Assembly (NCBI RefSeq): GCF_030684315.1
Contig: NC_081364.1
Span: 53,282,152-53,346,151 of the forward strand
Length of the DNA stretch: 64,000 bases
DNA from: Stegostoma tigrinum
Lineage: Eukaryota
Direction: 5' to 3'
A model generated the notes under the pieces. That model was not told the DNA's origin. It saw only the letters and a program-made list of their open reading frames with translations, and ran no database searches. Of this stretch, positions 2,731 to 62,440 are shown piece by piece (position 1 is the first letter of the stretch; the number at the start of each line of letters is the position of its first letter). The position numbers were made by a program, and so were the translations under genes.

Positions 2731-3845
2731 CAACACCTCAACTTAGGCATTTGCCATGTGACATCAGGAAGAACTGAAAGGGAAAATAATGTAAGTTTGT
2801 AGGTAACAGCAAGGCACATCCTGCAGCTAGGAAATGCATATGGTGATATATTTGAACTAATGCAATTGTGATTGGATAATACAATCATGTGTACTACTTG
2901 GAATGCAAGTTATGCAAATATGGTTTGTCAATGTTTAATTGGAAGGAAATACTTCTAGATATAGCTGAATAGAAGCTTATCAGTAAAAGTAGCGTAATAT
3001 CTTTGCTCATGATGATGATTTGAGTTATGTGCCAATTTTTTTTAAATGTGTACTTCTTCCATGCATGCATTAATAAACTTATTAGAAAGAAACCCAAGTC
3101 TTGTCTGGTCTTAAAGGAACGAAATGGTAGAATTCTCCGGTAATATTACATTGAAATCTGCTTTCCATAGTTTTGTCTGTTCTTAATCTGAATGATGATT
3201 TGTAATTCTATGCTTCCATCTACCCTGCACATGGACAGATACCAGCAAATTCATCTGTCTTCCTCTTTGATCATTTAAGTCATTAGGAAATATGGTAAAT
3301 ATTGGAGGCTCCAATACAGAGTCTCATAGGTCACAACTAATGGTACACAGCCTGCGAGATATAGTACTTGCCCATTAACCCTACCCAGTCTCTTGCTGCA
3401 GCCAATTTCTTATCAAATTTAATAATTTGTCTTCAGTGAGGGAGTCCTAGCATTTGGCTTCCAGAAAGTCACAGAAATAACATCTATACTTGGTCACTTT
3501 AAAAAAATGCATTGAGGTTTGTCAGGCAGGACAACATTTAAAAACTCTGATCAGTGGACCGTTTTTAAAGATGTTTAATCACTCTATTCCCTGGTATAAA
3601 CCCAGATGCTAATGTTGCTGGGAACACATGTTGCTTAGGGTTTCGGCTGCTTCAGCAGCAGTTTGATGCTCCAACATTCTGAAGATCTGTGATATGTTGC
3701 ATAGAATATTCTTTAAAGTTCCTTCGTTACTTTTGTTGTAATAATAATTATAATGCATTTTAATGATCAGAGATATTATACCGCAGCTGTTAAAATTTTT
3801 AAAAAATTTATTTATTAAAACTAAATTTCCACTCTAACACAGTAC

Positions 3846-5096
3846 CTGGAGTGTGGTTGATCTCTGCAAAACCTTTTCTTTGACTTTGGGATTCGTGGAA
3901 ATCTTCTCCAAAATCTCGGCGTGTAAAGGGTCCGAAACCAAAGCCTCACTTAGGGTCACATCTTGTTGACTCAACAGCCGGTACTTGGAGGCTCTGAAGA
4001 AAATCGAGAGGCCTTCGTGTTGCTTCTCCTTGATGCGAAACGCTCCCCGAAAGCCGAAAGCATCAAGGGCCGGGACCAAGCTGTCGGCGAACACGCTCTT
4101 ATCCACCTCCTGGAGACAGATGATGTCGGCGTTGTAGCCGCTGAGCTCCTTCTTGACGAGGTTCTGCCTGTAATCGAGCTCGAGTGCATAGGGCGGACAG
4201 TAGGGATATAGGGTATTTCTGGAGAGCTCGGTCTGAGCGTACACGTCGGCTAGAATGTTGTAAGAAACCACCCGGACCAGCGGTTCCTCCAGGGCCCGGC
4301 GGGTGAGCCACTGGCGGCTGTCAAAGGTACAAGCCCCCGGGCCGGCCTCCACCACGCCGGCACTCTCCAGCTCCACCGGCGCCCCGAAGCGCCGCTCGTC
4401 GCCCGGTTGGCATCTCAGCTTCAGCCTCAGGCCGACGTGGCCGTTGCTGGGCGTGAAGACCCGGCCGTTAGCCGCCGGCTCCCAGCCCCCCGCTGCCTCC
4501 TTCAGCCACCACTCGAACAAGGAGTGCGAGGCCTCCCCGAACTCCACTTCCACCTTGGGGCAAACCGGGAAGCCGGCCAAGATGGAGGTGGGCAACCGGA
4601 GCTGGGTCAGGGTGGGCGGGTTTCTCTCCACTCGGTACCTGGACTCGCCCACCTGTAAGATAGCTCCATCCTGCCAGGCCTCGGCGTTCCTTGTGTCCCC
4701 GGGAACCGGTTGGTCTCCCTGGTACAGGATCACTGGCGGGGCCGAGGCCTGTGGCGGGGCCGGGTCCGGGTCCGAGGCCGCGGCCTCCTTACGGCCTTTC
4801 CTGGGCTTCTTGGCCTGCGCTTTGACCAGATTGTGGGCGATGCGGCCGAGCGCCGTCTGCAGGCTCTCGCTCTGCTCCCGCTGCAGATGCCGCTGGCTTC
4901 CGCCCTCGGGCCCGAGCCGCAGCGAGATGGTCAGCTTGGCCTCGGTGGGGACGCAGCGGACAGTCGCGGTCTGCATGGCCGTCCGGCCCGGGCTCGGGCC
5001 CCGGCCCCGGCTCCGGCTCGAGGAAAAGCGGGCAGCCAGTCGCTGTAAAGCGGCCGAGGGCAGAGAGCGGACGGCGACAGCGACCAGGCCGCGCAT
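3846..5096 (-). CDS. PDE12: 2',5'-phosphodiesterase 12 (CCR4/nocturnin-family deadenylase), coding exon 1; downstream exons lie outside the window
   Basis: The ORF has an Arg/Ser-rich presequence, VRCVPTEAKLTISL, and EEP motifs RVVSYNILADVYA and YNADIICLQEVD. It ends RSTTLQ|gtactg (GT at 3845-3844, phase 0, 417 codons). Confidence 0.96.
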
Positions 5097-5720
5097 GGGG
5101 CCTGTCCGCCCGCTTCACGCGCACATCCCTCACCGCGGGTCCCCCCAACAGGAAAGATATCGGCTCCCGATTAAAGATACATCAAAATAGTAAACCCATC
5201 GTACGGAGGGAAATTATAAAACAGTGCGCGCGGCGCTGGCAGGCCGGTTATTGTTTAATTTATTTTAAAATGGTTAAGGAACTAGAAAGTCTTGTGCCTG
5301 CACATTCAGATGCCTCATCACTCAGTCTGTGTACTAAACCGACTGTGGGGATCACTCCGCCGCACATGGAGGTGAAGTTTAAAATAATTATTTCAGACTT
5401 CGACAAAGCACAAGCCAGATAAAGGTGGGGCCGGGCGGGGGTCTGGTGTTGGAGTGAACCCTAGACGCCGCAAACCAAATGCATGCCGAATTAGTGCTCA
5501 GGGAGAACAGTGTGAACTGCACAAACGCGAAATGGTGCAGCAGTATGAACGCGCCTCTCCAACCCAAGAGTGAAGTGTGAGGCTGTCGTGACGATGCTGG
5601 GGCAGGTTTGTTTTTAATTGCGAACTGATGTCCCCGCATTTTAAGCACAATAGTGGCCAAAAGGGGCAGCGTACGCCCTTTTGCTGACTGGAGAGAAGAC
5701 GTGCGAGAGCTGTGATGACC
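3950..5720. promoter_or_regulatory. CpG island over the PDE12 promoter and exon 1
   Basis: Dense CpG and high GC against CpG-depleted flanks; GC-rich element gggcgggg near 5434. Confidence 0.8.
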
Positions 5721-5806
5721 ACAATTGAAGCTGAGATAAGGGGCGCTGGAGAATCCGAGGTGGATGAACACAGCAGGCCAAGCAGCACCTCAGGAGCACA
5801 AAAGCT

Positions 5807-5834
5807 GACGTTTCGGGCCTAGACCCTTCTTCAG
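5807..5834 (-). ncRNA. Minimal hammerhead ribozyme motif
   Basis: Reverse complement reads ctgaagaagggtctaggcccgaaacgtc. Confidence 0.65.
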
Positions 5835-5887
5835 AAAATGTCAGTCATTTTGTCAGTCATTTGTTGACATCAAATGTCAGTTATTTT

Positions 5888-5915
5888 CTGATGAAGGGTC
5901 TAGGCCCGAAACGTC
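5888..5915 (+). ncRNA. Minimal hammerhead ribozyme motif
   Basis: ctgatgaagggtctaggcccgaaacgtc. Confidence 0.68.
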
Positions 5916-7136
5916 AGCTTTTGTGCTCCTAAGATGCTGCTTGGCCTGCTGTGTGCATCCAGCTCCACACGATTGAAGCTGGCCTTTATTTCGAAGTGAA
6001 TGGAGAAAAATAGGGAAGTCTTCCTAAAAGTATCCAAGGCAGTAGTTAGTCCACAGCTGAAGTACTGCGAACAGTTTCGCTTCCTCGTATCGAAGGAAAG
6101 AAACACTGACAGTGGAAGCAGTCCGGGGAAGGTTTCCTAGGTCAGGTTTTGTTTTAAAGAGAGAGGTTGAGTAGGTTCGGCTTGTGTTCCCTGGAATAAA
6201 AAAAGAATGAGGGACAAACTTATTGAAACATAAAATTTTTCTGGACTGAACAGACCCAATAGGCCCCATCCAGAATCCTGCCAGTTCTGTGTGTATATGA
6301 GTAGTGGGGAGTTTGCACGTGATGTAATGACGTAATGGGTCTGGAGTCATGTGCAAGCACAGTTCCAATGTCTGCAAACTCTACCTATTATGTTAGCTTT
6401 ACTAAAATGCAAGACTTCTTGCTGAGAATAAGTATCAGAAAATTTGTTCACTAAAACAACTAAAGAAACTACAGTGCTTATCACAGACATCAATGTAGTC
6501 TGAACTCAAGCATTTAAGAAGCTGTTTGACTGTCTAATCTTCCTGATGAATACTGATGTACAGTGGCAGCTATTAAAGTTGGGACAGACAACTTTTATAT
6601 GAGAATCTTCCAAAACAATAACACCATAATATCACATGGGAGGATGTTACACAACTCTTTTTCAAAGAGAATGTGCTTGCCTGATCTCATTACATGTAAA
6701 TATTATAAACATGAACCATACACATAACATGAATTGTCCCAGGGAAGTTCCTGGAGAAAAGAAATTCACAGCCATTCAGATCAAGAAGAAGTTGAGAAAT
6801 AAGGCTGCAACGACAAATCAGAAACTGAAATCTGATATTCACCCAGACTAACCTAAAAGATCTTTACTGAAATTTTGAAGGAGTTATCCAAAGAACGATG
6901 CCCTGAAACCAAACAACTTCATGTTGACGGTGAGATAGTAAGAACTTCCAGTGCTGGAGTCAGAGATAATACTGTGGATCTGGAGGAAAACAGCAGGTCA
7001 AGGAGCATCAGAGAAGTAGCAAAGCTGGCATTTCAAGTCAGGACCCTTCAGAAAGGGGGGAAGGAGTGGGAGCTCTGAAATAAATAGAGGAGGAGTGGGG
7101 CTGGGCAAGGTAGGTGGGATGGTGTTTGGTGAGTTC

Positions 7137-12200: not shown

Positions 12201-12371
12201 TTAATTGTACTCTTCCATCCTTTTTAAATGGACCAACATATGCCCTGAATAAGCAAGGACTAGCACAAGAATGAGAGAAATTAGTAGGCCCATCAAGACA
12301 GCTGGTGTAAAGAATGAGGCACAGTCTCTTGCTGAAGCAAACTGTCCTGCTTTAATATTAAAGCCTTGAAT
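12201..12371 (-). CDS. ATP6AP1L: V-type proton ATPase subunit S1-like, last exon (TM helix and tail)
   Basis: ctgcag|IQGFNIKAGQFASARDCASFFTPAVLMGLLISLILVLVLAYSGHMLVHLKRMEEYN*; Ac45/VOA1 TM signature. The spliced CDS totals 1197 nt (398 aa). Confidence 0.95.
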   Translation of the reverse strand: MQGFNIKAGQFASARDCASFFTPAVLMGLLISLILVLVLAYSGHMLVHLKRMEEYN

Positions 12372-12432
12372 CTGCAGAGATACCAAAGAGGGAAAAATAT
12401 TACCTTTCTAAGCTAATACACTCACCATAAAA

Positions 12433-12905
12433 ATTGCAGTTGTTCACTAGTTTGCTGAGCTGGTTGTTCTGTGGTGTGCAGATGTTCTGTTACCCTTCTA
12501 GGCAACATCGTCAGTGTGACCTCTAATCGAAGCAGTGGTGTTCTGCTTCATTCTGGATTTATATGATCCTCTCGTGTGATGGTCTTGTCTCTTCCAGTTC
12601 TGTTGTTTTAGCTCCAGTCTGTATATGTGGTCTATTTCTATGTGTTTGTTAATGGAGTCCTGTGTTGAGAACCAGACCCTGTGTACAGACCGGTGCTAAA
12701 ACAACAGAACTGGAAGCGACAAGACCATCACACGAGACAATCATATAAATCCGGAAGGAGGTAGAACACCAACACTTTGATTACAGGTCACACTGATGAT
12801 GTTGCCTAGAAGGGCAACGAAATGCCTGCACACCAGAAAACAACTGACTTGGTGAGGAAACGAACAACTGCATCCACAAACCAAGCTACAAATTTTCATT
12901 AAGAC
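12433..12905. mobile_element. Inverted-repeat element from a second PLE family
   Basis: Arms of about 180 bp; centre encodes a PLE C-terminus-like peptide WFSTQDSINKHIEIDHIY (- strand); TSD ctcaccataaaa 12421-12432 / cttaccataaaa 12906-12917. Confidence 0.8.
12793..12826 (+). ncRNA. Hammerhead motif of the second PLE family, cleavage triplet mutated
   Basis: ctgatga-t-gttgcc-tagaag-ggcaac-gaaa-tg-cc; 6-bp helix II. Confidence 0.55.
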
Positions 12906-14041: not shown

Positions 14042-14908
14042 GCTGAACAAACTTTGCTGACCACGTAGGATACTAACTCAAATGGATGGGAAAATAGCAG
14101 AACTTTGTTTTAAAACTGATTAAGAATTAATATCATTTTTGAGCTTTTATATAGATATTTTCATTAGTTCTGCATTATTGACGAGAATATAATCAAATTT
14201 TATGTGCCCCATAATCGGACAGCAGCCATTCCTATCCAATATTTAGGTAATGACTCTGTGATAATATTCTTATATTTAAAGGCTGACAAAGTATTTTTGT
14301 GTATTGCAGTCAGCTACCCTGTGCCTGTCAACCAGACGTGCGGATCACCTGCCACTATCGGCAGCTGTTCTGTCTGGTATCTCAGTACCACCACCTCTCC
14401 GTTTTCTTCTCCTCTAGGCCCATATTCTGAACACATTACCTAATATCTCCTTCTATGCTCAGCATCAATTTTTATGCCTTTGTGAAGACCTTGGGATATT
14501 TATGATGATATGTAAATACAAGTTGTTGAATATTCACTCTTTGGATGAAGATTAAGGCTCTAAACTAAACAGTTTACTTCAATATACAAGCAACAAACAG
14601 TATGAGGTATCAAACAGTGCAGATATTCCATCTTCAATACATTTAAAATAATCAATTTGCCACACACTCTTTCTGTGTATGGACTATAAAGCAGAAAGTC
14701 ACTTCATACTTGTGTAAAAATTTGCACTTTTGAACTGATCCAGTCGTCCAGTATACAAAATAAGAATTCATATAGAAACTCTAACTTAATGAAAAAAAAA
14801 ATCCCCAATCCTCAACTGAAGCAAGATCAATTTACAAGCCTTTTGTGGCTGGAATGGGAAAAACGGATTATTGAAAAAAGTGCTTGAAACCCAATATAAT
14901 TCTGACCA

Positions 14909-16910
14909 GAGAGATAATGGGAACTGCGGATGCTGGAGAATCCAAGGTAATAAAGTGTGAAGCTGGATGAACACGGATGTAGGTAGGGAGTTCAGATCTG
15001 GACTCCATTTTCTCCCCTTTCGTCCAGGAACTCCCTACCTACGTCCGTGACACCACCCACGCCCTCCACCTCCTTCAGAACTTCCAATTCCCTGGCCCCC
15101 AACACCTCATTTTCACCATGGACGTCCAGTCCCTATACACCTGTATTCCGCATGCAGATGGCCTTAAGGCCCTCCGCTTCTTCCTGTCCCGACCAGTCCC
15201 CCTCCACTGACACCCTCATCCACCTAGCTGAACTCGTCCTCACCCTCAACAACTTCTCTTTCGATTCCTCCCACTTCCTACAGACAAAGGGGGTGGCCAT
15301 GGGCACCCGCATGGGCCCCAGCTATGCCTGCCTCTTTGTAGGTTATGTGGAACAGTCCCTCTTCCGCACCTACACAGGCCCCAAACCCCACCTCTTCCTC
15401 CGTTACATTGATTACTCTATCGGCACCGCCTCTTGCTCCCCAGAGGAGCTCAAACAGTTCATCCACTTCACCAATACCTTCCACCCCAACCTCAAGTTCA
15501 CCTGGGCCATGTCCAACACATCTCTCACCTTCCTGGACCTCTCAGTCTCCATCTTAGGCAACCAGCTTGTAACTGATGTCCATTTCAAGCCCACCGACGC
15601 CCACAGCTACCTAGAATACACCTCTTCCCACCCACCCTTTTGCAAAAATTCCATCCCCTATTCCCAATTCCTCCACATCTGCTCCCAGGATGAGGCATTC
15701 CACTCCTGCACATCCCAGATGTCCAAGTTCTTCAAGGACCGCAACTTTCCCCCCACAGTGGTCGAGAACGCCCTTGACCGTGTCACCCGCATTTCCCGCA
15801 ACACATCCCTCACACCCCGCCCCTGCCACAACCGCCCAAAGAGGATCCCCCTCGTTCTCACACACCACCCCACCAACCTCCAGATACAACGCATCATCCT
15901 CCGACACTTCCGCCATCTACAATCCGACCCCACCACCCAAGACAATTTTCCAACCCCATCCTTGTCTGCTTTCCAGAGAGACCACTCTCTCCATGACTCC
16001 CTTGTCCGCTCCACACTGCCCTCCAACCCCACCACACCCGGCACCTTCCCCTGCAACCGCAGGAAGTGCTAGACTTGCCCCCACACCTCCTCCCTCACCC
16101 CTATCCCAGGCCACAAGATGACTTTCCATGTTAAGCAGAGGTTCACTTGCACATCTGCCAATGTGGTATACTGTATCCATTGTACCCGGTGTGGCTACCT
16201 CTACATTGGGGAAACCAAGCAGAGGCTTGGGGACCGCTTTGCAGAACACCTCCGCTCGGTTCGCAATAAACAACTGCACCTCCCAGTCGCGAACCATTTC
16301 AACTCCCCCTCCCATTCTTTAGATGACATGTCCATCATGGGCATCCTGCAGTGCCACAATGATGCCACCCGAAGGTTGCAGGAACAGCAACTCATATTCC
16401 ACTTGGGAACCCTGCAGCCCAATGGTATCAATGTGGACTTCACCAGCTTCAAAATCACCCCTTCCCCCACCGCATCCCAAAACCAGCCCAGTTCATCCCC
16501 TCCCTCCACTGCATCACACAACCAGCCCAGCTCATCCCCTCCCCCCACTGCATCCCAAAACCAGTCCAGCCTGTCTCTGCCTCCCTAACCTGTTCTTCCT
16601 CTCAACCATCCCTTCCTCCCACCCCAAGCCGCACCTCCATTTCCTACCTACTAACCTCATCCCACCTCCTTGACCTGTCCATCTTCCCTGGACTGACCTA
16701 TCCCCTCCCTACCTCCCCACCTATACTCTCCTCTCCACCTATCTTCCTTTCTCTCCATCTTCGGTCCGCTTCCCCCTCTCTCCCTATTTATTCCAGAACC
16801 CTCACCCCATCCCCGTCTCTGATGAAGGGTCTAGGCCCGAAACGTCAGCTTTTGTGCTCCTGAGATGCTGCTTGGCCTGCTGTGTTCATCCAGCTTCACA
16901 CTTTATTATC
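14909..16910 (+). mobile_element. Penelope-like element (RT + GIY-YIG endonuclease), 5'-truncated, with an inverted terminal fragment and TSD
   Basis: RT motifs QTKGVAMGTRMGPSYA and FLRYID; GIY-YIG NVVYCIHCTRCGYLYIGETKQRLGDRFAEH; TSD ataattctgacca 14896-14908 / ataatcctgacca 16911-16923. Confidence 0.93.
16819..16846 (+). ncRNA. Minimal type I hammerhead ribozyme motif at a PLE terminus
   Basis: CTGATGA-A-GGG TCTAGG CCC-GAAA-CG-TC. Helix I is weak (about 2 bp), so activity is unproven. Confidence 0.7.
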
Positions 16911-17789
16911 ATAATCCTGACCACAAGCCACTTGTTAGAAATAAGACCAATCAGTATCACTGTAGCCTACTTAAACGTCTAGACAAAGTTATCAGAACAA
17001 ACCAACTACTCCACAACAGTCTCTTGCAAGTTCTTTTGGGACTATCACTGTAGGAAGTAGAGATCCCAATCCAAAGTGGGATGCAGCCCAAGTGAATATA
17101 TAGTAGCACCAATTTGGGGAATTTGGAAACAGCGTGGGAATAGAACTGGTAATTTTTTTTTCTTTATCCATTTTAAAAGTTTAAAATTCAGTGGTGTAGT
17201 GAAAAGCTTAATAAGGTACCTGATTCAGCTGACTGGAATACAGATGTCAATTACCTGAAACTTGAATAGGTGCTAATTACTTAACTAGTGAGAGTCATTT
17301 CAGCTTGCCTCAGCTGTACTTAAGAGAGATAACAAGGTATAGAGTTGGATGAACACAGTAGGCCAAGCAGCATCAGATGAATAGTGAGGCTGATGTTTTG
17401 GGTCTAACCCTTCAGTTCCTGCTATCTTTGTACTTAAGAGAGGGTTGTTGAAAGTGCACAATCAGTAAACTTTGCATAGTCAGAAAGAAGAGAACATCTC
17501 TGGAGTAAGATACAGCCTGAGAGTGTGCACAGTTTGGGGATTTGGTGATGAGGTGCTTTTCACTTTTTTTTCTGACTCATAGTTTGTAATTTTTTTTTTC
17601 TGCACAAGATCAATTGAAGCCCAAGATAGGGGTTCAGCACAAGAGTGATAGGTAAACTGTAAGTTCATTGGTTGGTGGTAGCTACTAATTTTGACTATTA
17701 TAAGTTACTTTCAGAGTTAGGATAAATAGGGGAAATATTTACAGGCTGAAAACTAAAGGACCAGTACAATTTTTAAAAAAAACAGTAAA

Positions 17790-20110: not shown

Positions 20111-21100
20111 AGTCTGGAAAAGATTTTATGTTCAAGCAGATGGCAGATGTTGAATGGTAACTCGGACCTGGTGGAGGAGATGGTCAGTTTGTCAGGAGTG
20201 GTCAGAGTTTGAATTGAATTTTGGACTGTGTTTTCTGGAATCAGGTTGCTGATGCTACAACATGAGGATCTGAAAGTTCCCTAGTGAATCTCCCATTAGC
20301 AGCTCTTGGAAGCTCAAAGAAAGAAAATGAAGTGAGAAATATTACTGCCTTTGTCTGAGTGAACTCTAAAGGTGACCACAATCAATATCTTGAGAACATC
20401 AGCCAAGAAACTATCATCAATGCTTGTGGAACAACGCATCATGAAAACTATTTAAGTAATCTGGCCAGTTTCACTATTCTCTTTTATTCATCCTTAGTTG
20501 TGCTAGTTTGTCATCCTTTATGTGAATAGACTAGAAACTGTTTTTTTTGGGTTTATAGTATAAGTCTATAAGATTACTTTGTTGTTTAATTTTGCTCTCC
20601 TGAGGTTAAATTGCTAAGTTTTTTCTTTAAGCTACAAACCAGTGTCAAGAATTGATCATTAGCAAAGTCTGCGACTGGATAGTCAGAAAAGTCTGAATGG
20701 AAACTTTGGGGTCAATTTTGAGGGTCTTTGAAGGTTTTAACATTACTTTTTTTTTCCATATATACCCAGAAGTGCCATCACACACAACTGAGCACCTTTG
20801 CTACCACAAAAATCACTGACTTTTTTTGTTTCTTTGTTTCCTCCTTAAGCACTAACCATCAGCAGTAGGGTAATGTTACTATGTTACAAATACATAGGTA
20901 AAGAGCTGATTTTATTTAGCTGTCTGTCTCTGTGTTGCAACACTATATTAAGTTTAACTTTGGCAAATGGTGAAGAAAGTGCTACAATTGATCAAAATAT
21001 AACATGCATTTCTATTGAAAGTCTTAAATTTGGAGATTTCCCCCACTGGAATAATCACAAATACTTTAAATATATTTCACTTTATTGAAATGAACCATAC

Positions 21101-21344
21101 CTGAAACTCCACAAAGGTAATATGCCACAATCTTGTCATGTCTCCTTGAGATCTGGACACGAGTAGCGCTTCATGTTTCTGCAGACTACTGATGTATTGA
21201 CAGTGATATGAATGTGTAACTGGAGCGTAAATTTCAGATGCATTGAACGCTGCTTGTAATGAATTGTTGTGGAAGATCTGCACAAAATCCAGGCTAAACC
21301 ACTTCTGAACAGAAGTTCTGTGATAATTATTTGACATTTCAAAC
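21101..21344 (-). CDS. ATP6AP1L: V-type proton ATPase subunit S1-like, exon 9 (luminal domain)
   Basis: atag|FEMSNNYHRTSVQKWFSLDFV...FNASEIYAPVTHSYHCQYISSL...WHITFVEFQ|gtatgg; 244 nt. Confidence 0.95.
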
Positions 21345-23276
21345 CTATAATTAGACAATAGAAGCACTGAAACTTTTATCTACAAAACATTTCATATGTT
21401 AAATTTTTGCATTTGCATTTGCGTTGTGTATCACAGTGTTTGGGCAAACAGGTATGTTTAATCAACCTGTCCAGGGATGTTATGATACACCTCTGAAGTA
21501 AGAGTGACTCAATCGCAGACCTCCTAGCTCTGACAATAGGAACACTACCCACTGTGCCACCGAACCCTAAGGGTTGGACAGATGTATATTCTATAATCAA
21601 ACTGTCAGAGATGTTATTTCACATAGCCGAAGCAAGTGGAATTTGAACACAAACCTCCTGTCTCAGACATTGAGATACTATAACTGTGCTGCAAGAGTTC
21701 CTACTGATAGGGAAATAAGTTGTGTTGATTTATGAACAACACCTGTCTTGCTTTGGTACAAGTTATCATATCTTAGTTAAATAACTAATATTTTGCAATG
21801 ATAATACTTAATACCTGTCTAAGGCAGTAAATTAAGGAATTCAGTTGACATTGATAGATAAATGTCCCTAATAATAGCTGCGGAATTGCCAGATATACCA
21901 TTGACCTAACTGGGTATTTCACTCTGTTTTGTTTGGTGTCTGATGTGTAGATTGTGCAGGTACATGATATGAAAGGATATTTATATAGAAAGATTAAAAT
22001 AATATTGTGGCATCCCTCACCCCTGTAACAGTGTTTCAACAAATACTACAATTGGGAGCCCTATAGATTAGGAATACGCTTGGATTGATCGTTGGATTGT
22101 GATGAATTTGGTGATCCGAGGGTCCTGATGGCAATTCTGCAACTGAGCTCAACAGTCCTGACTTACGAAAATGAAAAGCGTCTATATCCCTTTCAAGCAA
22201 CTTTAACTGTACTGCATCACCAGGGGACAAGATTGAGCTGAGCAATGTTTATTATATACATTAGCTACTGCCACCATTCATCATCAGGTATACTTATATA
22301 TGATGACTACTTGTCTAAAGTATTTACAGGATGATTAACATTGTGGACCTCAACAAAGTATTATCATGTTCAAGTGGTTCTGATGTCATTATTACAAATA
22401 TGCCAAGAACCAACTGGAACTTTAAAACTTAAGAGTATGTTATGGAGCCTTAGTGCCTCATAAATGGGATTGAATATTCACGGTATTTTGTCATTTGGCT
22501 TCAGGTATTCTAATGTGCAAGTGATTTTAAAGCTGAAATCTGCTTTGAACATTCTGTGTATTCCAACCTTTACAGTCTGCCATTGTATATAATGATCCTT
22601 GAACAAATAAACACACAAGAAAACACTGTAAGTGTTTTCCCCTGTCTTCTGTCAGTAATATGCCCAGAGCCAAGAATCAGATGTGTCTGCTACCCTGCAT
22701 TCAAACTAAAAGGCTGAGTAACATTGCTAATAAACACCAATGTGACTCATGAAATGTCCATGCTGGTTTTCTTCATTGAAATATCAAAAATTACCTCTCC
22801 AAAAATTAAGAATACTCTGTAGTTAAAAGAAATTGAAACCATTTTCCATTTACTCTTCAAGCTCTTTTATCTTGCTTAACTTGTTTTGATCAGTTACCCA
22901 GCCTACCATCCTAGCCACAAAGCTTTAATTAAGATATTCTTGAGATGTAATCAGGATTACGAGTAATTTAAAGAACATTATTATAATCTGTTGCTCTAAA
23001 CTGATCGTTTATTCTTTGGGTTTGACACAAATGAATCTTTCCCTTAAATCCTAAAATATATTTGTGCCTGTGATGTACCTTTATGTGTCAACAAGTTTCT
23101 AATCCACATCTGTCATTTGAAACAAGTGAAAATGCTAGAGTGCAATATACTACATCATATAATAGACTATAAATCAGTACAATCTTGCTTGAGCTCAGGT
23201 GCAATGTTAAGTATACAGTACTAAGCACCTAAGTAATTACCTAGGTAAGGAGAATTACTTAGGTAATATTCCTTAC

Positions 23277-24563: not shown

Positions 24564-24805
24564 GTAGCTTTATCTGCAGTACATGTTGAATCCCTGGTAT
24601 TAATTTTAGCAGTGCTCCCAAAAGTTCTGTTTGTCAAATCTATCTCAGGCTGGTCTCCAATTCGGAGTGTTACCTTCTTAGCTATGAAGAGAATGCAGGG
24701 GATTTCACCATCTGTGACATTTATGGGAGGATACTGGTTCCAGGTTGGGACTTGTAGGAGCTGTCTACCTGTATTCATTACATCATTGAAAGCAAGTCTA
24801 ATGAC
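24564..24805 (-). CDS. ATP6AP1L: V-type proton ATPase subunit S1-like, exon 7
   Basis: catag|VIRLAFNDVMNTGRQLLQ...PCILFIAKK...DLTNRTF...STCTADKA(T)|gtaagt; 242 nt. Confidence 0.93.
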
Positions 24806-33829: not shown

Positions 33830-36800
33830 TGAAATAACTCCACAGAGACTGCTGTCCGATCACTAAGTCACCCTTTATTTACACATGGAATGTCCTTGAC
33901 ACTGGTCCAGCTCTCTCAGAGTTTCAGAGTGTCTGACATCCCTCTTTACCTGTAAGTCAGGCCTCCCTAATTGGGGCAGTTAATCTGGTCCAATCAGGGA
34001 ATTTATATTCCATGAGGTACCCTGACTGACCTTGTTTACAATCACTACATCCTTGGCCTCTGAGTGTGAGGACATAGGCATGTCCTTTTTCTTGTAGTGC
34101 CTCCTGGGGCGTTTAGCACTGGGTGAGGTTCCTGTGACTCTGTATCGGATACAGGGTTTCGGGGGGTGCGCAGGAACGTGTAATGCACAGGAACTCTCCT
34201 CTTGCACCCAGAGAGTCTCGGAAGAATTTCATTCCCTTCTTCTGGTGGAAAAGGAGCCTATGCGGCGTGATCCACTGTGTTTATCTCCGATTCAGAGGCC
34301 TCTTCAACGCTTGATGGCGAGGGAGAACACACAGGTTCTCACAACTTTTCCAAATGTTCTGAGGAGCAAGGCACGTTTTGCTGCCACACCATTTGTGAAT
34401 TTGTGGCTTTCATGTTGTCCACATGCTTGTTCAGGATCATCACACCTAACTGAACTTTATACATAAGTGGACATGTCCTTGCGTCAAACAAGACTCTTAC
34501 CTATGCAAGACTATTCCCGTGGTTCCTCCACCAAACTGTTCCCTGTAGTAAACTGTCTGTCTTACTTGGCGGAGTCTGGCGTCCAGCCCTGGAGTTCCTG
34601 ATGCTATTTCACCCTCACCCCTGTCCAGGTCTGGGAAGATCAGACTTAACCTGGTGTGAAGTCTTCTCCCCAACTCTGCTGGAGCTATTCCTGCAATTGC
34701 ATAAGGGATGATCCTATAATCCAGTAGGAACTGAGACAGTTTGGTATTTAGCGAAGCTGTAGGCTGTTTCTTCAAGCCCACCTTCAAAGTTTGACTTCTC
34801 TTTCTGCCAGACCATTGGATGTTGGATGGTATGGAGTTGTCTTTATATGCTGAATCCATTTGACTTTAGGAACTACCTAAATTCCTTGCTGGTAAACGAT
34901 GGCCCATTATCCATGACCAACCCTTTCGGGATTCTGTGTATTGCAGAAGATGCGTTCAGTTTTTCTATTGTTGTTCCTGTATTTGATGAATGAACCCGAT
35001 GCATGTGCAACCACTTTTGAGTGGGCATCAACAATGATGAAGAACATTTAGCTCATGAAAGGACCTGCACAGTTGACATGCAACCAAGTCCAGGGATTAC
35101 CCAGCCATGCCCATGAGGAGCTGGTGGTAATTTCCGTCCATGTCAACCCAGAGGATTGCTCCACCAACGCAGCTGTATCTGCATCCAATCCTGGCCACCA
35201 GACATAACTTCTCGCCAACATTTTCATTTTGAAGATGGCTGTATGACCCTGGTACAGTTCAGCAGTCTTGAATGTATACATTATTGGGTGTTGGTCTCCA
35301 CTAAACCACCTATGAGCTAATACTATCTCGATACTGTATGGGGAGGTACTGCATATCAATACAAGATCTCGCCTCAGAGCATAACTTTCAGAAAAGTTAA
35401 GAAACAGCTATGGCTTGGCTACGCAAGTATTTCCAAGGTTGACCCTTTTTGAGGAGTTGAAACGAAGGTGCCAGGATGGAGGCCAGAGATAATGGGAACT
35501 GCAGATGTTGGAGAATCCAAGATAACAAAGTGTGGAGCTGGATGAACACAGAAGCCAAGCAGCATCTTAGGAGCACAAAAGCTGACGTTTCGGGCCTAGA
35601 CTGTTCATCAGAAAAGGGGGATGGGGAGAGGGTTCTGAAATAAATAGGGAGAGAGGGGGAGGCAGACCGAAGATGGATAGAGGAGAAGATAGGTGGAGAG
35701 GTAGGGAGGGGATAGGTCAGCCTGGGGTGGACGGACAGGTCAAGGGGGCGCGATGAGGTTAGTAGGTAGGAAATGGAGGTGCGGCTTGAGGTGGGAAGAG
35801 GGGATAGGTGAGAGGAAGAACAAGTTAGGGAGGCAGGGACGAGCTGGGCTGGTTTTGGGATGCAGTGGGGGGAGGGGAGATTTTCAAGCTGGTGAAATCC
35901 ACCTTGATACCATTGGGCTGCAGGGTTCCCAAGCGGAATATGAGCTGCTGTTCCTGCAACCTTCGGGTGGCATCATTATGGCACTGCAGGTGGCCCAGGA
36001 TGGACATGTCATCTAAGGAATGGGAGGGGGTGTTAAAATGGTTTGTGACTCGGAGATGCAGTTGTTTATTGCGAACCGAGCGTAGGTGTTCTACAAAGCG
36101 GTCCTCAAGCCTCCGCTTGGTTTCCCCAATGTAGAGGAAGCCACAACGGGTACAGTATACCACATTGGCAGATGTGCAGGTGAATATCTTCTTGATGTGG
36201 AAAGTCATCTTGGGGCCTGGGATGGGGGTGAGGGAGGAGGTGTGGGGGCAAGTGTAGCACTTCCTGCGGTTGCAGGGTCAAGTGCCAGGTTTGGTGGGGT
36301 TGGAGGGCAGTGTGGAGCGAACAAGGGAGTCACGGAGAGAGTGATCTCTCCGGAAAGCAGACGGGGTGGGGATGGAAAAATGTCTTGGGTGGTGGGGTCG
36401 GATTGTAGATGGTGGAAGTGTCGGAGGATGATGCGTTGTATCTGGAGGTTGGTGGGATGGTATGTGAGGACTAGGGGGATTCTCTTTTGGCGGTTATTGT
36501 GGGGGCCGGGTGTGAGGTAAGAGTGGTGGGTAATATGGTCCAGGGCATTCTCGACCACTGCGGGGGTGGGGGGGGGGGGGTGTTGTTGTGGTCCTTGAAG
36601 AACGCAGACATCTGGGATGTGAGGGAGTGGAATGCCTCATCCAGGGAGCAGATGTGGCGGAGGTGAAGGAATTGGGAATGAGGGATGGAATTTTTGCAGG
36701 AAGATGGGTGGGAGGAGGTGTATTCTAGGTAGCTGTGGGAGTCAATGGGCTTGAAATGGACATCGGTTTCTAGGTGGTTGCCTGAGATGGAGACAGAGAG

Positions 36801-39220
36801 GTCCAGGAAGGTGAGGGATGTGTTGGAGATGGTCCAGGTGAAGAAGGTTATGTATGAACCTTACATAATAATTCACCATCCCGAGGAAAGACCTAAACTC
36901 CGGTACAGACGTGGGAGCTGGGGTACCTTTGATCGCCCTCACTTTATCTACCAACAGGTGTAACTTAGTTGTCAACTCTGTCACTTGAGGTGGCTGGAAC
37001 ACACTTTTCCGTTCTTAGGCTATTCCATGGAAGTAGACAGCCTTGCCAGCCTGACTGAACTAGGAGAACACAACTTGAGTGAAAATAAATATATAGCCAC
37101 ACCCAGGACTTATCCTGACCAGAGGGACTCAGGGGCAGTCTTACGTCTTCTTAGGCATATGCCTGCCTGGGAGGTCCAAGTTCTCTAAGTACTCCTTATT
37201 GGTCTTCCCTGTTTATTAGCATGTCATCTAGATAAATGGCGACCTGGGGTAGATCTTGCAAAATGTTCTCCATCATCTGCTGAAAACTTGCATAGGCTGA
37301 TAATACCTCAAATGGCAGTTTTGTATATTGGTACAAACTTGATGGTATTATTAGTGGCATACTTCTGGGAATCCTCCTCTCACTGCAACTGCAAGTACGC
37401 ATGGTTCATGTCCAGCTTCGCGAAGGACAACCCCCTGTCAGCTTTGCATATGAATCCTTTATGTGAGGCATTTGGTATTTACCCAGCTGTGAGAAACGGT
37501 TTACTGTTTGTTTAAAATCCGTACAAAAGCAAACTGACCCGTCAGGCTTCAAAATTGGTCCAATTGGTTCTGCTCATTCAGCAAACTGCCTTGATGGTTC
37601 CTTAGTTTTCCAGCCTCCTGATTTCTGTCTCTACTTTTGCACGTAAGGCAAATGTCACTGGGCGGGCCTTGTAGAAGCGTGGAATTACTTCCTGGTTAAC
37701 ATGCAAGATTGCTTTGTCTCCTTTGATAGTCCTTAGATCTTCCTGAAAGACTTCTGGTTTTTTAATTAGGACTTCACTCAGATAGTCATTTTCTAATCAA
37801 AATGTTGAGCCAATCTAGGTGAATATTTCTCAGTCAAATTCACTCTGTCAAGTTTGACCTGAGCCTTTTACTACAATCACTGATTACTGAACCAGCGGCT
37901 TCTCATAGAAGACTGGAACTGCAGTTATAGCCTTAATCTGTAAAGGTACCCAGGTATAGGTTCTCAGTCTAGCCAAGGTCTTGCACAAACTTAAGGGCTG
38001 GAGCCCAGAATGAATTGTGTTATAGACTGATCCTGTGGTTACCGAAACGGCCACTTCGGTGTCGACCTCCATTGGAACCAGATGGCCATTTAACCAGATG
38101 TTTATTTTGATGGTTCAGATTTGAATGTTACTAAGGAATTGACTTATTCCAAACCAGGTGTAGATGGACCCTCCTAGATACTGGACTATTAGTTCTCTTA
38201 TTCAGTTTAGGTCTAGTAGGACTCCTTTGCTGTCTTGGGTCCACATATCGGCAGCAACTACAATGGCTTGCTGGCCCAGAATCTCAAGCAAATTTTAGCC
38301 ATTTGGTTGAGGCTTGGCTTTGTTTTGGGTTTTGCTGCGGGCTGCCTGAGAGTCCCTCTGGTCAGGATATGTCCTGAGTGTGGCTATATAATTACTTTCG
38401 CTCAAGTGGCGTTCCCCTAGCTCTGTCCGGCTGGCAAGGCTGTTTACTTCCATGGAACAGCCGGCAACTCATGTGCTCCACTTGCCACACTTTCCAATGA
38501 TAAAGCCAATTGTAGTGCCTGTTTGAAGTCCAGTTGGGCTTCAGCTAGTGGGTACTTTTGCTTGGTTACATCATTAATCCCACATTCCAAATGGTCTCTC
38601 AGGATCTCAGTAAGGGTTAAACCAAAGTCACATGCCTCTGCCAGTTGACCTAAAAATCTCAATACAGATTCCACTGGTTCTCGAATTGCTGAGTAAAAGC
38701 TATAACATCTCAGAATTCGAAGAGGCTTAGGATTGTAATGTTCTCTACCTAAACCTAGACTCCTAATAACCAAAAATGCTGTGGGTCAACACATTGTCAG
38801 GAGACCTAATCATTGCTTTTCACCTGCCCTAAAGTCATTTACCTGGGAAAAAATAACACATTTTTCTACATACTGGGCCTGTCTTTGACGGTAGGGTCAA
38901 ATGAGTCAAGCTTCACGAAATAACGGTGTAATGTTTACGCCAACTCAAAGATGACGTTTGTGAGCGAGTTTCTTCAGGCATGTGCTTTAGTCTCATCACC
39001 AGTGAAATAATGCCACAGAGGCCAGTATTCCGTCATCAAGTCTCCCTTTATTTACACGCGTAAAGTCTCTGACACTGGTTCAGCTCCCTCAGAGCCAGCT
39101 CTCAGATTGGCAGAATGTCTGATACTCTGCCTTTTATCTGATTGGACCAGATTAACAGTTCCAATCAGGGAACTCATATTCAATGAGGTCCACCTGGCTG
39201 ACCTTGTTACAATCACTACA
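33830..39220 (-). mobile_element. Degenerate Gypsy/Ty3 (Mag-like) LTR retrotransposon
   Basis: TG...CA LTRs at 39003-39220 and 33830-34049; 5-bp TSD ttcag (33825-33829, 39221-39225); PBS-like tggtgatgag; protease MEVDTEVAVSV, RT IYLDDMLI, integrase KMKMLARSYVWWPGLD. Confidence 0.92.
35485..36840 (-). mobile_element. Penelope-like element nested in the Gypsy element
   Basis: GIY-YIG ORF 35825-36208 (VVYCTRCGFLYIGETKRRLEDRFVEH) and the same terminus as the other copies. Confidence 0.9.
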
Positions 39221-42634: not shown

Positions 42635-42704
42635 CTGTGTTAAATTGAATGAAGTACTATATTTGTATTGATAGTGAAATAGAAACATCTACCTATTTGA
42701 TACG

Positions 42705-42890
42705 ACAGTGTGGAGCTGGAGGAACACAGCAGACCAGGCAGCATCAGAGGAGCAGGAAAGCTGATGTTTTGGGTTGGATCCTTCTTCAGAAAGGATCTGA
42801 AGGAGGGTCCCGACCCGAAATGTCAGCCTTCCTGCTCCTCTTATGCTGCCTGGCCTACTGTGTTCATCCAGCTCTACACCTTGGTATCTC
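42705..42890. mobile_element. Palindromic PLE-derived element, older copy
   Basis: Inverted arms with a spacer of about 7 nt; decayed hammerhead cores. Confidence 0.8.
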
Positions 42891-52039: not shown

Positions 52040-55000
52040 TACCTGGACTACTCCTCCTCTCACAGATACCCACAGCTACCCGGACTACACCTCCTCTTGC
52101 CCACCCTCCCACAAGAATATGATCCTATATTCCCAGTTTTTCTGCATCTGCTTCCAAGATAGGATGTTCTAATCCCAAACATCCCAGATGTCCTCCAATT
52201 TCAAGGACCGTAACATGCCCGCCTGCACGAACTCCAGTACTCAGAAATGCACTCAACAGCATCTCTTGCACTGCACTGCTGCCCTCAAACTCCCACCACC
52301 CCCAACAAAAATAAAGACTGAATACCCCTTGTCCTGACATATCACCCCACCAACAGCTGTATCCAATGTATCATTCTCTGCCACTTCCATCATCTACAAC
52401 TGACCCCACAACCAAAGAGATATTTCCCTCCTCACCCCTATCTGCCTTTCGTGGGGACCACTCTCTCTGCAACTCCCTTGTCTGCTCCACGCTCCCCACT
52501 AACCAGACCACCCCTAGCACCATTTCCTTGCACTACAGGAAGTGCTACACCTACCCCTGCACATCCCGGAACCCCCAGCACCCTCTTAAGGCACGAAACA
52601 AACCTTCCATATCAGGGTAACAAAGTGTGAAGCTGGATGAACACAGCAGGCCAAGCAGCATCTCAGGAGCACAAAAGCTGACATTTCGGGCCTAGACCCT
52701 TCATCAGAAAAGGGGGATGGGGAGAGGGTTCCGAAATAAATAGGGAGAGAGGGGGAGGTGGACCGAAGATGGATAGAGGAGAAGATAGGTGGGGAGGGAA
52801 TAGGTCAGTCCGGGGAGGACAGATGGGTCAAGGAGGTGGGATGAGGTTAGTAGGTGGGAAATGGAGGGATGGCTTGAAGTGGGAGGAGGGGATAGGTGAG
52901 AGGAAGAACAGGTTAGGGAGGTGGGGACGAGCTGGGCTGGTTTTGGGATGCAGTGGGGGAGGAGGAGATTTTGAAGCTTGTGAAGTCCACATTTATACCA
53001 TTGGGCTGCAGGGTTCCCAAGCGCAATATGAGTTGCTATTCCTGCAACCTTCGGGTGGCATCATTGTGGCACTGCAGGAGGCCCATAATGGACATGTCGT
53101 CTAAAGAATGGGAGGGGGAGTTGAAATGGTTCGCGACTGGGAGGTGCAGTTGTTTATTGCGAACCAAGCGGAGGTGTTCTGCAAAGCGGTCCCCAAGCCT
53201 CCGCTTGGTTTCCCCAGTGTAGAGGAAGCCACACGGGTACAGTGGATGCAGTATACCACATTGGCGGATGTGCAGGTGAACATCTGCTTAATGTGGAAAG
53301 TCATCTTGGGGCCTGGGATGGGGGTGAGGGAGGAGGTGTGGGGGCAAGTGTAGCATTCCCTGCGGTTGCAGGGGAAGGTGCCGGGCATGGTGGGGTTGGA
53401 GGGGATTGTGGAGCAGACAAGGGAGTCATGGAGAGAGTGGTCTCTCCGGAAGGCAGACAAGGGTGGGGATGGAAAAATGTCTTGGGTGGTGGGGTCGGAT
53501 TGTAGATGGCAGAAGTGTCAGAGGATGATGCGTTGTATCCGGAGGTTGGTGGGGTGGTATGTGAGGATGAGGGGGGTTCTCTTAAGGCGGTTCTTGCGGG
53601 AACGGGGTGTGAGGGATGAGTTGCGGGAAATGCGGGAGACATGGTCAAGAGCATTCTCAACCACTGCGGGGGGGAAGTTGCGGTCCTTGAAGAACTTGGA
53701 CATCTGGGATGTGTGGGAGTGGAATGCTTCATCCAGGGAGCAGATGCGGCGGAGGCGGAGGAATTGGGAATAGGGGATGGAATTTTTGCAGGGGAGTGGG
53801 TGGGAGGAGGTGTATTCTAGGTAGCTGTGGGAGTCGGTGGGCTTGAAATGGACATCAGTTTCTAGCTGGTTGCCTGAGATGGAGATAGAGAGGTCCAGGA
53901 AGGTGAGGGATGTGTTGGAGATGGCCCAGGTGAACTTGAGGTTGGGATGGAAGGTGTTGGTGAAGTGGATGAACTGTTCGAGCTCCTCTTGGGAGCAAGA
54001 GGCGGCGCCATTACAGTCATCAATGTAACAGAGGAAGAGGTGGGTTTGGGGCCAGTGTAGGTGCGGAAGAGGGACTGTTTCACCTAACCTACAAAGAAGC
54101 TGACATAGCTTGGGCCCATGCAGGTACCCATGGTCACTCCCTTTGTCTGTAGGAAGTGGGAGGAATCTAAAGAGAAGTTGTTGAGGGTGAGGATGGGTTC
54201 GGCTAGGCGGATGAGGGTGTTGGTGGAGGGGGACTGGTCGGGACAGGAAGAAGCGGAGGGCCTTGAGGCCATCTGCATGAGGAATGCAGGTGGAAAGGAC
54301 TGGACGTCCATGGTGAAAATTAGGTGTTGGGGACCAGGGAATTGGACGTTCTGGAGGAGGTGGAGGGCGTGGGTGGTGTTACGGATATAGGTGGGAACTT
54401 CCTGGACCAAAGGGGATAAAATGGAGTCCAGATAGGTGGAGATGAGTTCGGTGGGGCAGGAGCAGGTGGAGACAATAGGTCGGCCAGGGCAGGCGGGTTT
54501 GTGGATTTTGGGAAGAGATAGAAACGGGCGGTGTGGGGTTGGGGAACAGTGAGGTTGGAAGCTGTGGTGATGAGGTCATGGATGGTGTTGGAGATGATGG
54601 TTTGGTGCTCAGAAGTGGGGTCATGATCAAGGGGGCGGTAGGAGGTGGTGTCGGAGAGTTGGCGTTTGGCCTCAGTGATGTAGAGGTCAGTGTGCCATAC
54701 TACATCTGCGCCTCCCTTGTCTGCGGGTTTGATGGTGAGGTTGGGGTTGGAGCGGAGGGCTGCCCATTCTGCAGGGGAGAGGTTGGAGTGGGTGAGAGGG
54801 GTGGAGAGGTTGAGGCGATTAATGTCTCAACGGCAGTTGGAGATGAAGAGGTCAAGGGAGGGTGGGAGGCCTGGGGGTGGTGTCCAGGAGGAGGACTTGT
54901 GTTGGAGGCGGGTGAAGGGGTCAGTGGAAGGAGGATTAGGCTCCCGGTGAAAGAAGTAAGCGTGGAGGCGAAAGTGGCGGAAAAACTGCTCAATGTCCAA

Positions 55001-55715
55001 ATGTGACTGGTATTCGTTGATGTGTGGGTGGAGGGGGACAAAGGTGAGCCCCTTGCTTAGGACTGACTGTTCGTCCTCAGTCAGGGGGTGGTCTGGGGGG
55101 TTGGTGAAGATTCGGCAGGGCTTAGTGTGGCTGTCTTCTATGGGTTGCTGGCTGTGGAGGCTGTGGGAGGAGTGATGTAGGCGCTTCCATATCAGACTGG
55201 TTCACCTGCACGTGTTAACTTAGTCTGCTGTTCCCAATGTGGCCTCTTCTGCATCAGCGAGACCAAGCGTAGATTTGGAGGCCATTTTGTCGAGCATCTG
55301 TGCTCTGTTCACGACAAATGACAACACCTTCCAGTTGCCAACCATTGGCCTAAACATGGAATACACCTGTTTTAACATCTCCTACCCCCAGCCTCAATCC
55401 ACGTCCAACCCTCCCACACGTCCCTGCCTCGTTGACCTGACACAACCTGTCCATCTTCTCTCCCACCTATCTGTCCTACGTAACCCACTGATCAATTCCC
55501 TCCACACTCTACCTGCACTCATTTCTCACCATTCCACCTACCTTTCCCAGTCCCACCTCTCTATTTCCCAGCTTCCTTCCCCCTCCCTATTTCTGAGGAG
55601 GGTCCCAACCCAAAACATCAATTTTCCTGCTCCTCTGATGCTGCCTGGCCTTCTGTGTTCCTCCAGCTCCATACTGTGTCTTCTCTGACTCAGGCATCTG
55701 CAATTCTTGCTATCA
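52040..55715 (+). mobile_element. Older PLE copy (52040-52615 plus 55184-55715) split by the younger antisense PLE
   Basis: Diverged PLE sequence continues colinearly across the TSD; degenerate terminus at 55593-55715. Confidence 0.8.
52616..55183 (-). mobile_element. Penelope-like element, longest copy in the window, frameshifted
   Basis: Same RT and GIY-YIG sequence as 14909-16910; exact 12-bp TSD cttccatatcag at 52604-52615 and 55184-55195. Confidence 0.93.
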
Positions 55716-61690: not shown

Positions 61691-61905
61691 TTAAACTTTA
61701 GGGCTTTTAGGAGGAGAGGTTATAACTGCCTCACTCAATTTGAATTTCATCGGTTAAAGAAGTGGCTGTGTGTGAACCAGAATGAATCGTTTCTGCGTTC
61801 TAAGTGTCATTGTGTGTCTTTGCAAAGTGATATGTGCTAATAAGAGTGGCATTGATATTTATATAAAAAAGGACAACCGTTTTGATAGGGCTGCAGTTTT
61901 GATTT

Positions 61906-62149
61906 AACAAGGTGTAGAGCTGAATGAACACAGCAGGCCAAGCAGCATCAAGAGGACCAGGAAAGCTGACGTTTCGGGGTCTAGACCCTTCTTCAGAAAA
62001 AAAATTCTGAATTTCCATTTTGTCTGAAGAAGGGTCTAGACCCGAAACGTCAGTTTTCCTGCTCTTCGGCTGCTGCTTGGCTTGCTGTGTTCATCCAGCT
62101 CTACACCTTGTTATCACAGATTCTCCAGCATCGGCAGTTCCTACTTTCT
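61906..62149. mobile_element. Palindromic non-autonomous PLE-derived element
   Basis: Inverted arms; TSD-like ctgcagttttgattt 61891-61905 / ctgcagatttgatat 62150-62164. Confidence 0.85.
62024..62051 (+). ncRNA. Minimal hammerhead ribozyme motif
   Basis: ctgaaga-a-gggtctagaccc-gaaa-cg-tc with a fully palindromic helix II. Confidence 0.68.
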
Positions 62150-62440
62150 CTGCAGATTTGATATGATTTGATCGGACATTGATGCGACAATGCTTGGCAT
62201 CATTTCTGACTTCTCAGATACTTGAACAGTCTATATCACACAGTCTACTGACAGTGGTATATGTAGTGTTTTCATTGCAATTTATATAGCGAATGCAGCA
62301 AAGGGTTGAATATTTCCAGTAGTAGATTTATCTCGTAGCTGACGTGAAACGAACTTTAAATGGCATTTCCCGAAACTTAGTATTGGTCCTGTATTTATAT
62401 AGTGCCCTTAAAATCATACACATCCTAAGTTATTTTCCAG

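Follow-up and report, generated by a model that had tools for sequence, protein, structure and literature searches.

Insertions of EN+ PLEs are described as an inverted 5'-truncated copy with an optional tail of 30-40 bp, a target-site duplication (TSD) and a junction palindrome (PMC3846280, PMC8557442; here and below, papers are cited for the passages covered). The pLTR of Adineta Pen2a carries a putative TATA plus Inr (PMC3846280, PMC8557442). The protein of PAc has been reported to cut and extend both strands, with two internal start sites that bound the tail and a predicted dimer (PMC11167929). Dual minimal hammerheads lie on opposite strands, 100-700 bp apart, in Schistosoma (PMC4209133), and non-LTR retrozymes are present in one chondrichthyan (bioRxiv 10.64898/2026.07.22.740005). 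Both the origin of the inverted one-tailed PLE insertion and the cutting of minimal hammerheads in vivo are posed as open questions in the covered parts of this literature (PMC8557442, PMC11167929, PMC4209133). Here we analyse a palindrome at positions 5724-5981 of a 64,000-nt stretch of the Stegostoma tigrinum genome (hereafter the window), and compare it with its relatives genome-wide. It is a known insertion architecture in miniature, likely formed de novo, and not a new ribozyme element; it is the aggregate of such copies that carries a mechanistic signal.

A hammerhead-bearing palindrome and its parent element

The features of the element and of the related copies in the window are as follows (the C of CUGA is +1).

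5724..5733, plus strand: left TSD; extends to 5720 with one mismatch
5734..5838, minus strand: tail-bearing PLE arm; tail remnant at ~5734-5759, which lacks two small internal stretches; 5' end lies 4 nt upstream of CUGA
5807..5834, minus strand: core of a minimal type I hammerhead, predicted to cleave between 5807 and 5806
5839..5883, no strand: 45-nt fill at the junction, containing three units that resemble TGTCAGT and one short fold-back
5884..5970, plus strand: tail-less PLE arm, -4 to +83
5888..5915, plus strand: core of a minimal type I hammerhead, predicted to cleave between 5915 and 5916 (GUC^A)
5972..5981, plus strand: right TSD
14896..16923, plus strand: long parent-PLE insertion of the same layout; TSD 12/13
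16785..16818, plus strand: TATTTAT box and, after it, a pyrimidine-rich stretch resembling an initiator, both upstream of the parent's CUGA; putative pLTR promoter
35484..36860, minus strand: copy of the parent PLE, truncated at the 5' end but with a complete tail; CX4CxxC motif in the linker
42699..42890, no strand: third, old palindrome without adjacent TSD
52618..55200, minus strand: copy of the parent PLE, the longest one in the window; DKG, QxxGxxMG and YxDD recognised by eye as RT motifs; tail-less end
61891..62162, no strand: second mini palindrome, an older one; right arm tailed; TSD of 12/13 (61891-61903 / 62150-62162)

Without its TSDs, the element spans 5734-5971. An earlier sequence-only reading had described it as two inverted copies of a PLE terminus, each with a hammerhead core, within a perfect 10-bp TSD, and much of this stands. 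Both cores match the motif with 0 mismatches (0 chance matches expected) and have the CUGANGA...GAAA...UH core, helix II and palindromic helix III of a minimal type I hammerhead; an Rfam scan returned no hammerhead family, only weak microRNA-hairpin matches below the gathering score. The TSD, ATTGAAGCTG, is present at 5724-5733 and 5972-5981 and reaches 13/14 when extended (5720-5733 / 5968-5981). The arms are indeed inverted copies, identical at 77/82 aligned bases, but they are unequal, one of them carrying a tail of 35-40 nt. In this element the tail sits on the left arm, where the remnant was judged by eye against the tailed copy at 35484-35615; tail-less arms end at about +83 to +95. The arms differ at three diagnostic sites, one of which is next to the deletion. 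The core-to-core gap of 53 nt is the longest among 52 sampled minis (median 9), and the 45-nt fill is likely an end-joining fill-in, for which no exact 7-mer source was found in the right arm. The spacer (5815-5910) is crossed with zero differences by a single Logan contig (X2), which probably stems from the assembly's own sample.

The element lies ~600 bp upstream of a PDE12-like first exon (3834-5114, by Pfam) and downstream of an ATP6AP1-like gene (V-ATPase S1; exons 24563-24805, 21080-21379 and 12204-12407, by Pfam), both on the minus strand. Two of the three palindromes in the window are no more than ~250 bp from a CpG-rich stretch, namely 5001-5500, which is the PDE12-like promoter, and 61251-61750, near a putative gene at ~61.5 kb. 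The element itself is probably an ordinary, inert copy.

The mini arms correspond to the 3' end of the PLE copies at 14996-16910, 35484-36860 and 52618-55200, which supports the proposed PLE origin of the palindromes. The insertion at 14896-16923 consists of a TSD, an inverted tailed stub (14910-14977), a 5'-truncated RT and GIY-YIG body (1.9 kb), a tail-less end and the second TSD. Pfam identified a GIY-YIG domain (PF01541) at 16073-16585 (E=5.8e-5) and gave no RT match in the three PLE fragments scanned, the RT motifs being recognised by eye only. The parent has the organisation of an EN+ PLE: an RT followed by a C-terminal GIY-YIG endonuclease, a hammerhead-bearing pLTR at the 3' end that is repeated before the ORF, and an inverted 5'-truncated copy with a one-sided 30-40 bp tail and a TSD. 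The hammerhead-bearing end runs on into 5' element sequence at loci L163, L182, L184, L187 and L189. The linker CNRRKCYTC in the ORF at 35825-36277 fits the CX2-5CxxC motif that precedes GIY-YIG and marks the Neptune/Nematis clade (PMC8557442), and by this CX4CxxC linker the parent is classified as a Neptune-type PLE.

Two further copies had been proposed to share the layout. The one at 61906-62149 does so, with a TSD of 12/13 and a single tail on the right; the one at 42705-42890 is a palindrome, but has no TSD beside its arms (best 5 matches) and no tail by eye. Another PLE family in the window also bears a hammerhead (helix II GGGUC-ACUG-GACCC) and has palindromic minis of its own (41620-41715, 44258-44403 and 42890-43060). 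A 380-bp inverted repeat at 12463-12844, with 79% arm identity, is unrelated to this PLE end.

Abundance and composition of the palindromes genome-wide

The 3.2 Gb genome contains 137,446 strict hammerhead cores, with 11,241 head-to-head pairs at a gap of 0-60 bp (0 for a reversed-pattern control) and 802 more at 61-121 bp. Chance adjacency would yield 90-322 pairs, at assumed densities of 68,700-130,000 sites per strand. We characterised 52 minis, made up of the 50 pairs listed of the 11,241 and two pattern-matching window copies; sampling covered the first 51 Mb of one contig, for the most part its first 11 Mb, and 134 kb of the window's contig. A TSD with at least 10 matches flanks 41/52, compared with 18/2,652 mismatched-flank controls. 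The excess of TSD-flanked inverted pairs over chance, whose absence would have counted against the earlier reading, is present, and each palindrome appears to enter the genome as a single insertion with its own TSD, as had been suggested. Nearly all minis (47/52) combine one tailed with one tail-less arm, five have two tail-less arms, a class that takes in the 5724-5981 element with its partly deleted tail, and none has two tailed arms. The 3' ends cluster at ~+125 to +132 in tailed arms and at ~+90 to +95 in tail-less ones.

The spacers between the arms are short (median 9 nt) and varied, with 40 different ones in 52 minis. Eight simple types cover 20/52, and the recurrent spacers are plain joins of arm ends, carried with different subfamily variants (L011 vs L073). 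A complex 13-nt spacer seen twice in the sample has only two copies genome-wide. This supports the proposal that the palindromes form de novo at each insertion. The two copies with the 13-nt spacer (L069/L191 and L074/L192, at C1:5341064 and C1:6846765) lie 1.5 Mb apart and have different TSDs and the tail on the same side; they are possibly a rare secondary copy or a product of gene conversion. Pairs with longer gaps have the same structure with arms that extend further upstream, and the minis are the short end of a continuum. The palindrome probably does not copy itself as a ribozyme element but is a dead by-product.

Helix I of the cores has 2 bp, formed by -2/-1 with +30/+29 (C:G in 177, U:G in 49 and U:A in 9 of 262 cores). 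Changes in the helices are one-sided only (U12-G17/U12-A17; C:G/U:G/U:A in helix I), the search patterns having fixed the 5' stem side; double-sided covariation in helix II is likewise absent from the sample, but with patterns of this kind the test was blind to it. RNA dimerisation through helix II was considered (predicted homodimer -38.0 vs 2 x -11.4 kcal/mol) but is not claimed, as the palindromic CUAG loop is lost in older subfamilies.

Head-to-tail repeats that join the tail to the 5' part of the element were also observed, with a period of ~305-363 bp at the listed sites (C1:49657925-49658678, C1:104860940-104862285 and C1:99569697-99570089; also L175 and L190). In L175 and L190 the unit comprises the tail, the 5' part, a promoter block and the hammerhead, an internally deleted tandem arrangement, and units of this type resemble genuine non-LTR retrozymes, for which they are candidates. 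Of the 2,806 copies that continue beyond the tail, many return after 80-400 nt to the C-rich block upstream of the hammerhead, at varying points (L161-L190), a pattern suggestive of template jumps; in L171 and L174 the sequence picks up again precisely at the predicted cut.

Arm ends before CUGA and at the predicted cut

The 5' ends of the arms form a wall just before the hammerhead. For 114 strict cores (sites on contig C1 and in 134 kb around the window), 34 ends fall 0-6 nt upstream of CUGA and 0 at 7-57 nt, while the remainder are spread out to 2.6 kb at no more than 0.13 per nt. A downstream-anchored hand count of the 100 matches listed of 188,954 gave 56 long arms and 24 ends at -6 to +1, with inner ends at +2 to +16 (17), +17 to +28 (0) and +29 (3). 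A one-sided hard edge with an inner tail of this kind would fit run-off from an RNA end followed by trimming.

Of the promoter-bearing arms of the main subfamily, 96/105 have a TATTTAT whose first base lies 34 nt ahead of CUGA. The modal wall is at -4 (24/78), the next being -2 (15). A wall at -4 places the first T of the box at -30 and the start on CC+1TCTCT, in agreement with the human TCT motif YC+1TYTYY and the TATA window of -32 to -28 (PMC5580651), and the older CCCATTTC variant fits the Inr BBCA+1BW. Because it stands ~30 nt after the TATTTAT box and on a TCT/Inr-like motif, the wall is probably the start of pLTR transcription. TATTTAT is an imperfect TATAWR, and the promoter of D. virilis Penelope is internal and TATA-less (PMC2377424). 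In two small subfamilies whose box spacing is 35 instead of 34 nt, the wall showed no clear shift (its modes being -4 and -3, with n=15 and 16), and the data are thus matched just as well by a wall that depends on the ribozyme. A G precedes CTCT (position -5) in 19/23 non-C cases, as one derived from a cap might, but the partner arm or microhomology supplies many of these Gs. Two other sources of the wall were rejected. A splice acceptor, as in D. virilis (PMC4209133, in the part covered), would need an AG that is not found at -6/-5, and the spacers have no common upstream exon; a G-quadruplex would be expected to stall synthesis near -20 or further upstream, and no arm ends are seen in that region.

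A second junction peak coincides with the predicted ribozyme cut. Genome-wide, 727 perfect palindromes have as their centre the AGCT at +29 that directly follows GUC, compared with 148 on CTAG at +13 and 24 on GGCC at +56 at control sites. Among 16 AGCT-centred palindromes examined (17 loci given), 12/16 have a TSD of at least 10 matches and 15/16 a single tail. In hand counts of the 100 matches listed per search, starts at +29 comprised 33 palindromic (~2,200 of the 6,592 matches) and 21 other junctions (~1,400), compared with 21 starts at +28 (~640 of 3,026, partly chance spill from +29) and 21 at +30 (~560 of 2,682). On these listed matches +29 exceeds each neighbour ~2-fold without the palindromes and ~6-fold with them, with the caveat that AGCT is self-complementary, which favours joining, and that several of the non-palindromic junctions use AGC microhomology. 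A small downstream-anchored map, from a sample selected on intact cores rather than a genome-wide count of +34, has 5 starts at +33/+34 vs 2 true starts at +29. The starts at +33/+34 cluster inside the U-run after the cut site (L157, L091, L093, L135 and L082). We put the chance that ribozyme cleavage in vivo would be the cause of the +29 peak at about even. In two AGCT-centred palindromes (L227 and L204) the arms differ at a diagnostic site, and these differing arms point to possible reciprocal cleavage in RNA dimers.

Mechanism and comparison with known systems

To characterise the insertions beyond the minis, we compiled 48 two-armed insertions of all lengths (65 rows before duplicates were removed), which partly overlap the mini sample. 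One tail is present in 44, two in 3 and none in 1. The tailed arm reaches further upstream in 18, the tail-less arm in 18, and the two are equal in 8 (n=44), with differences that sometimes exceed 1 kb. The arm classes are coupled, with 20 mini-mini, 20 long-long and 8 mixed pairs vs 24 mixed expected (P=1.7e-6), and the lengths of long arms correlate (rho 0.61, n=18). Among the 34 young pairs of 52 that were compared at diagnostic sites, the arms disagree at 17/221 site-pairs, vs 65 under random pairing and a background mutation of 1.3%; identical arm haplotypes occur in 17/28 vs 6.4 when shuffled. The arms of L070 differ at 3 linked diagnostic sites. We infer that both cDNAs come mostly from one RNA or source, and in a minority of insertions (L070, 5724-5981) from two RNAs.

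We think it reasonably probable that these TSD-flanked insertions arise by two-ended priming. Both nicked target ends would prime reverse transcription at two internal sites of the RNA, the cDNAs would run off its 5' end, which is probably the transcription start just before the hammerhead, and the two would be end-joined anew at each site. The equal reach of tailed and tail-less arms accords with the reported action of the anole PLE protein on both strands (PMC11167929). Long arms would derive from read-through or circular RNA, and a minor class that starts at +29 from ribozyme-cut RNA. Against this model, 3/48 insertions have two tails; the arm concordance, the perfect junction palindromes and the length coupling also fit self-priming; and the in vitro PLE data, in the part covered, are from a Poseidon-clade element and not from the Neptune-type clade found here. 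The sequence-only reading had offered PLE template switching as one origin: the palindromes are a recurrent PLE by-product, but two separately primed cDNAs describe them more aptly.

In the self-priming alternative, a single cDNA folds back and copies itself into the inverted arm, or does so on an antisense template in a variant of the idea (PMC3846280, in the passages covered). It has real attractions, in that the arms agree far beyond random, share rare variants (L064, L074 and L062), often meet in perfect palindromes such as AGAGCTCT or AGCT, and are coupled in class and length. We nevertheless regard it as unlikely. The tail-less arm outreaches the tailed one in 18/44, sometimes by more than 1 kb, and this 18/18 symmetry disfavours the fold-back of one cDNA; linked differences separate the arms of L070 and of the window copy, the 17 discordant site-pairs are more than the few expected from mutation, and the concentration of tail-less ends at ~+90-95 resembles a second start site. 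Self-priming accounts for the coupling, not for the symmetry or the discordant pairs. The other alternative keeps two-ended priming and attributes the -4 wall to a hammerhead (folded, dimerised or bound by protein) whose 5' edge would stop reverse transcription. In position the wall matches the 5' strand of helix I, with its 2 bp, and it does not clearly track the TATA spacing, and the ribozyme is assisted by the PLE protein in the covered part of PMC11167929. However, the polymerase would unwind helix I (+29/+30) before it reached -4, ~56% of arms pass the point (among the 100 matches listed) and 0/114 stop in the next 50 nt, and TATA-like and initiator-like motifs stand at canonical spacing; we consider such a block distinctly improbable.

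The sequence-only reading had also offered a non-autonomous, retrozyme-like hairpin class that yields one ribozyme from either strand. Such a retrozyme- or MITE-like element would be transcribed, would cleave itself on either strand and would be copied as a unit. The copy number is high, the copies have their own TSDs, some simple spacers recur, and the 13-nt spacer shared over 1.5 Mb could be a rare secondary copy. Yet the 40 spacers in 52 minis, with the recurrent ones being simple arm-end joins on different subfamily variants, and the continuum with long two-armed PLE insertions contradict a hairpin class. The cores lie head-to-head and not as the tandem same-strand units, each with a hammerhead, of a retrozyme, and neither clonal families with a shared interior nor the symmetric fixed ends of a MITE were found, the ends being asymmetric. 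The idea of one ribozyme whichever strand is transcribed fares no better. The full unit is predicted to fold into a hairpin of -168.8 kcal/mol (z -19.5) vs -108.5 with the hammerhead forced on the right arm, a predicted cost of ~60 kcal/mol; the antisense arm is transcribed first on either strand; and an isolated arm is predicted to favour an inactive CUGAUG/CGUCAG pairing. For these reasons an either-strand ribozyme is unlikely, and the palindrome is predicted to bury its ribozyme in the hairpin. The upstream TATTTAT box is missing from the minis, which are likely dead on arrival, and read-through of a mini would give a long duplex rather than a ribozyme. We consider the hairpin-element reading very improbable and largely refuted.

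Returning to two-ended priming, the junctions, which number in the tens of thousands, may form a fossil map of three PLE RNA states, each insertion being the work of a two-headed RT-endonuclease with priming from both nicks at a fixed pair of sites. The capped uncut RNA would correspond to the -4 wall, the ribozyme-cut RNA to the +29 peak, and read-through or circular RNA to the long arms. This is a tentative idea about which we are somewhat doubtful; if true, it would provide genomic evidence that a minimal PLE hammerhead cleaves in vivo, and would explain the long-unexplained inverted-repeat-plus-tail structure. This family makes predictions at the level of single bases, namely an RNA start at -4, a cut at +28/+29, priming at ~+92 and ~+130, and a stagger of 11-16 bp. 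The more than 11,000 palindromes, if transcribed, would also be a source of long double-stranded RNA.

Twin priming of L1 offers a parallel outside PLEs, as there the second target end primes a cDNA and the inversion junction shows microhomology or fill. Twin-primed L1 arms cover non-overlapping parts of the RNA, whereas the two arms described here span one common stretch, with fixed starts at two sites ~36 nt apart. PAc, from an anole Poseidon element, likewise has a hammerhead in its pLTR, cuts and extends both strands from two internal starts and is a predicted dimer, but it belongs to a different clade than the element with the CX4CxxC linker described here; in the covered parts of the PAc paper, the two starts are not linked to the two arms of one insertion, and no RNA-seq ends are reported at the ribozyme cut, in contrast to the genomic junction peak found here (PMC11167929). 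The cores resemble the minimal hammerheads of metazoan PLEs in their CUGANGA core, the extra base before helix II and the palindromic ACGU that replaces helix III, and differ from the paired ones of Schistosoma in lying 2-53 bp apart with a helix I of only 2 bp; no shark is named among the hosts in the main text covered (PMC4209133). Like non-LTR retrozymes, the minis are small, non-coding, PLE-derived and hammerhead-bearing, but retrozymes are tandem same-strand repeats, whereas the minis are inverted pairs whose RNA is a predicted duplex (bioRxiv 10.64898/2026.07.22.740005, in the part covered).

In the main texts of the openly available literature searched, we found no description of the wall, the arm coupling, the cut-site peak or minis of this kind; shark families may be described in supplements, subscription papers or Repbase/Dfam. 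The inverted truncated copy, the one-sided tail, the TSD, the junction palindrome, minimal hammerheads and opposite-strand pairs of them are all known. The covered passages on EN+ PLEs favour self-priming, without breakpoint statistics such as these (PMC3846280, PMC8557442). As in those insertions, the unit here is inverted head-to-head, with a tail at one end, a single TSD and a junction palindrome; unlike in the published examples covered, both arms are only 85-135 bp long, there are more than 11,000 copies, and the arms share one sharp stop beside the ribozyme.
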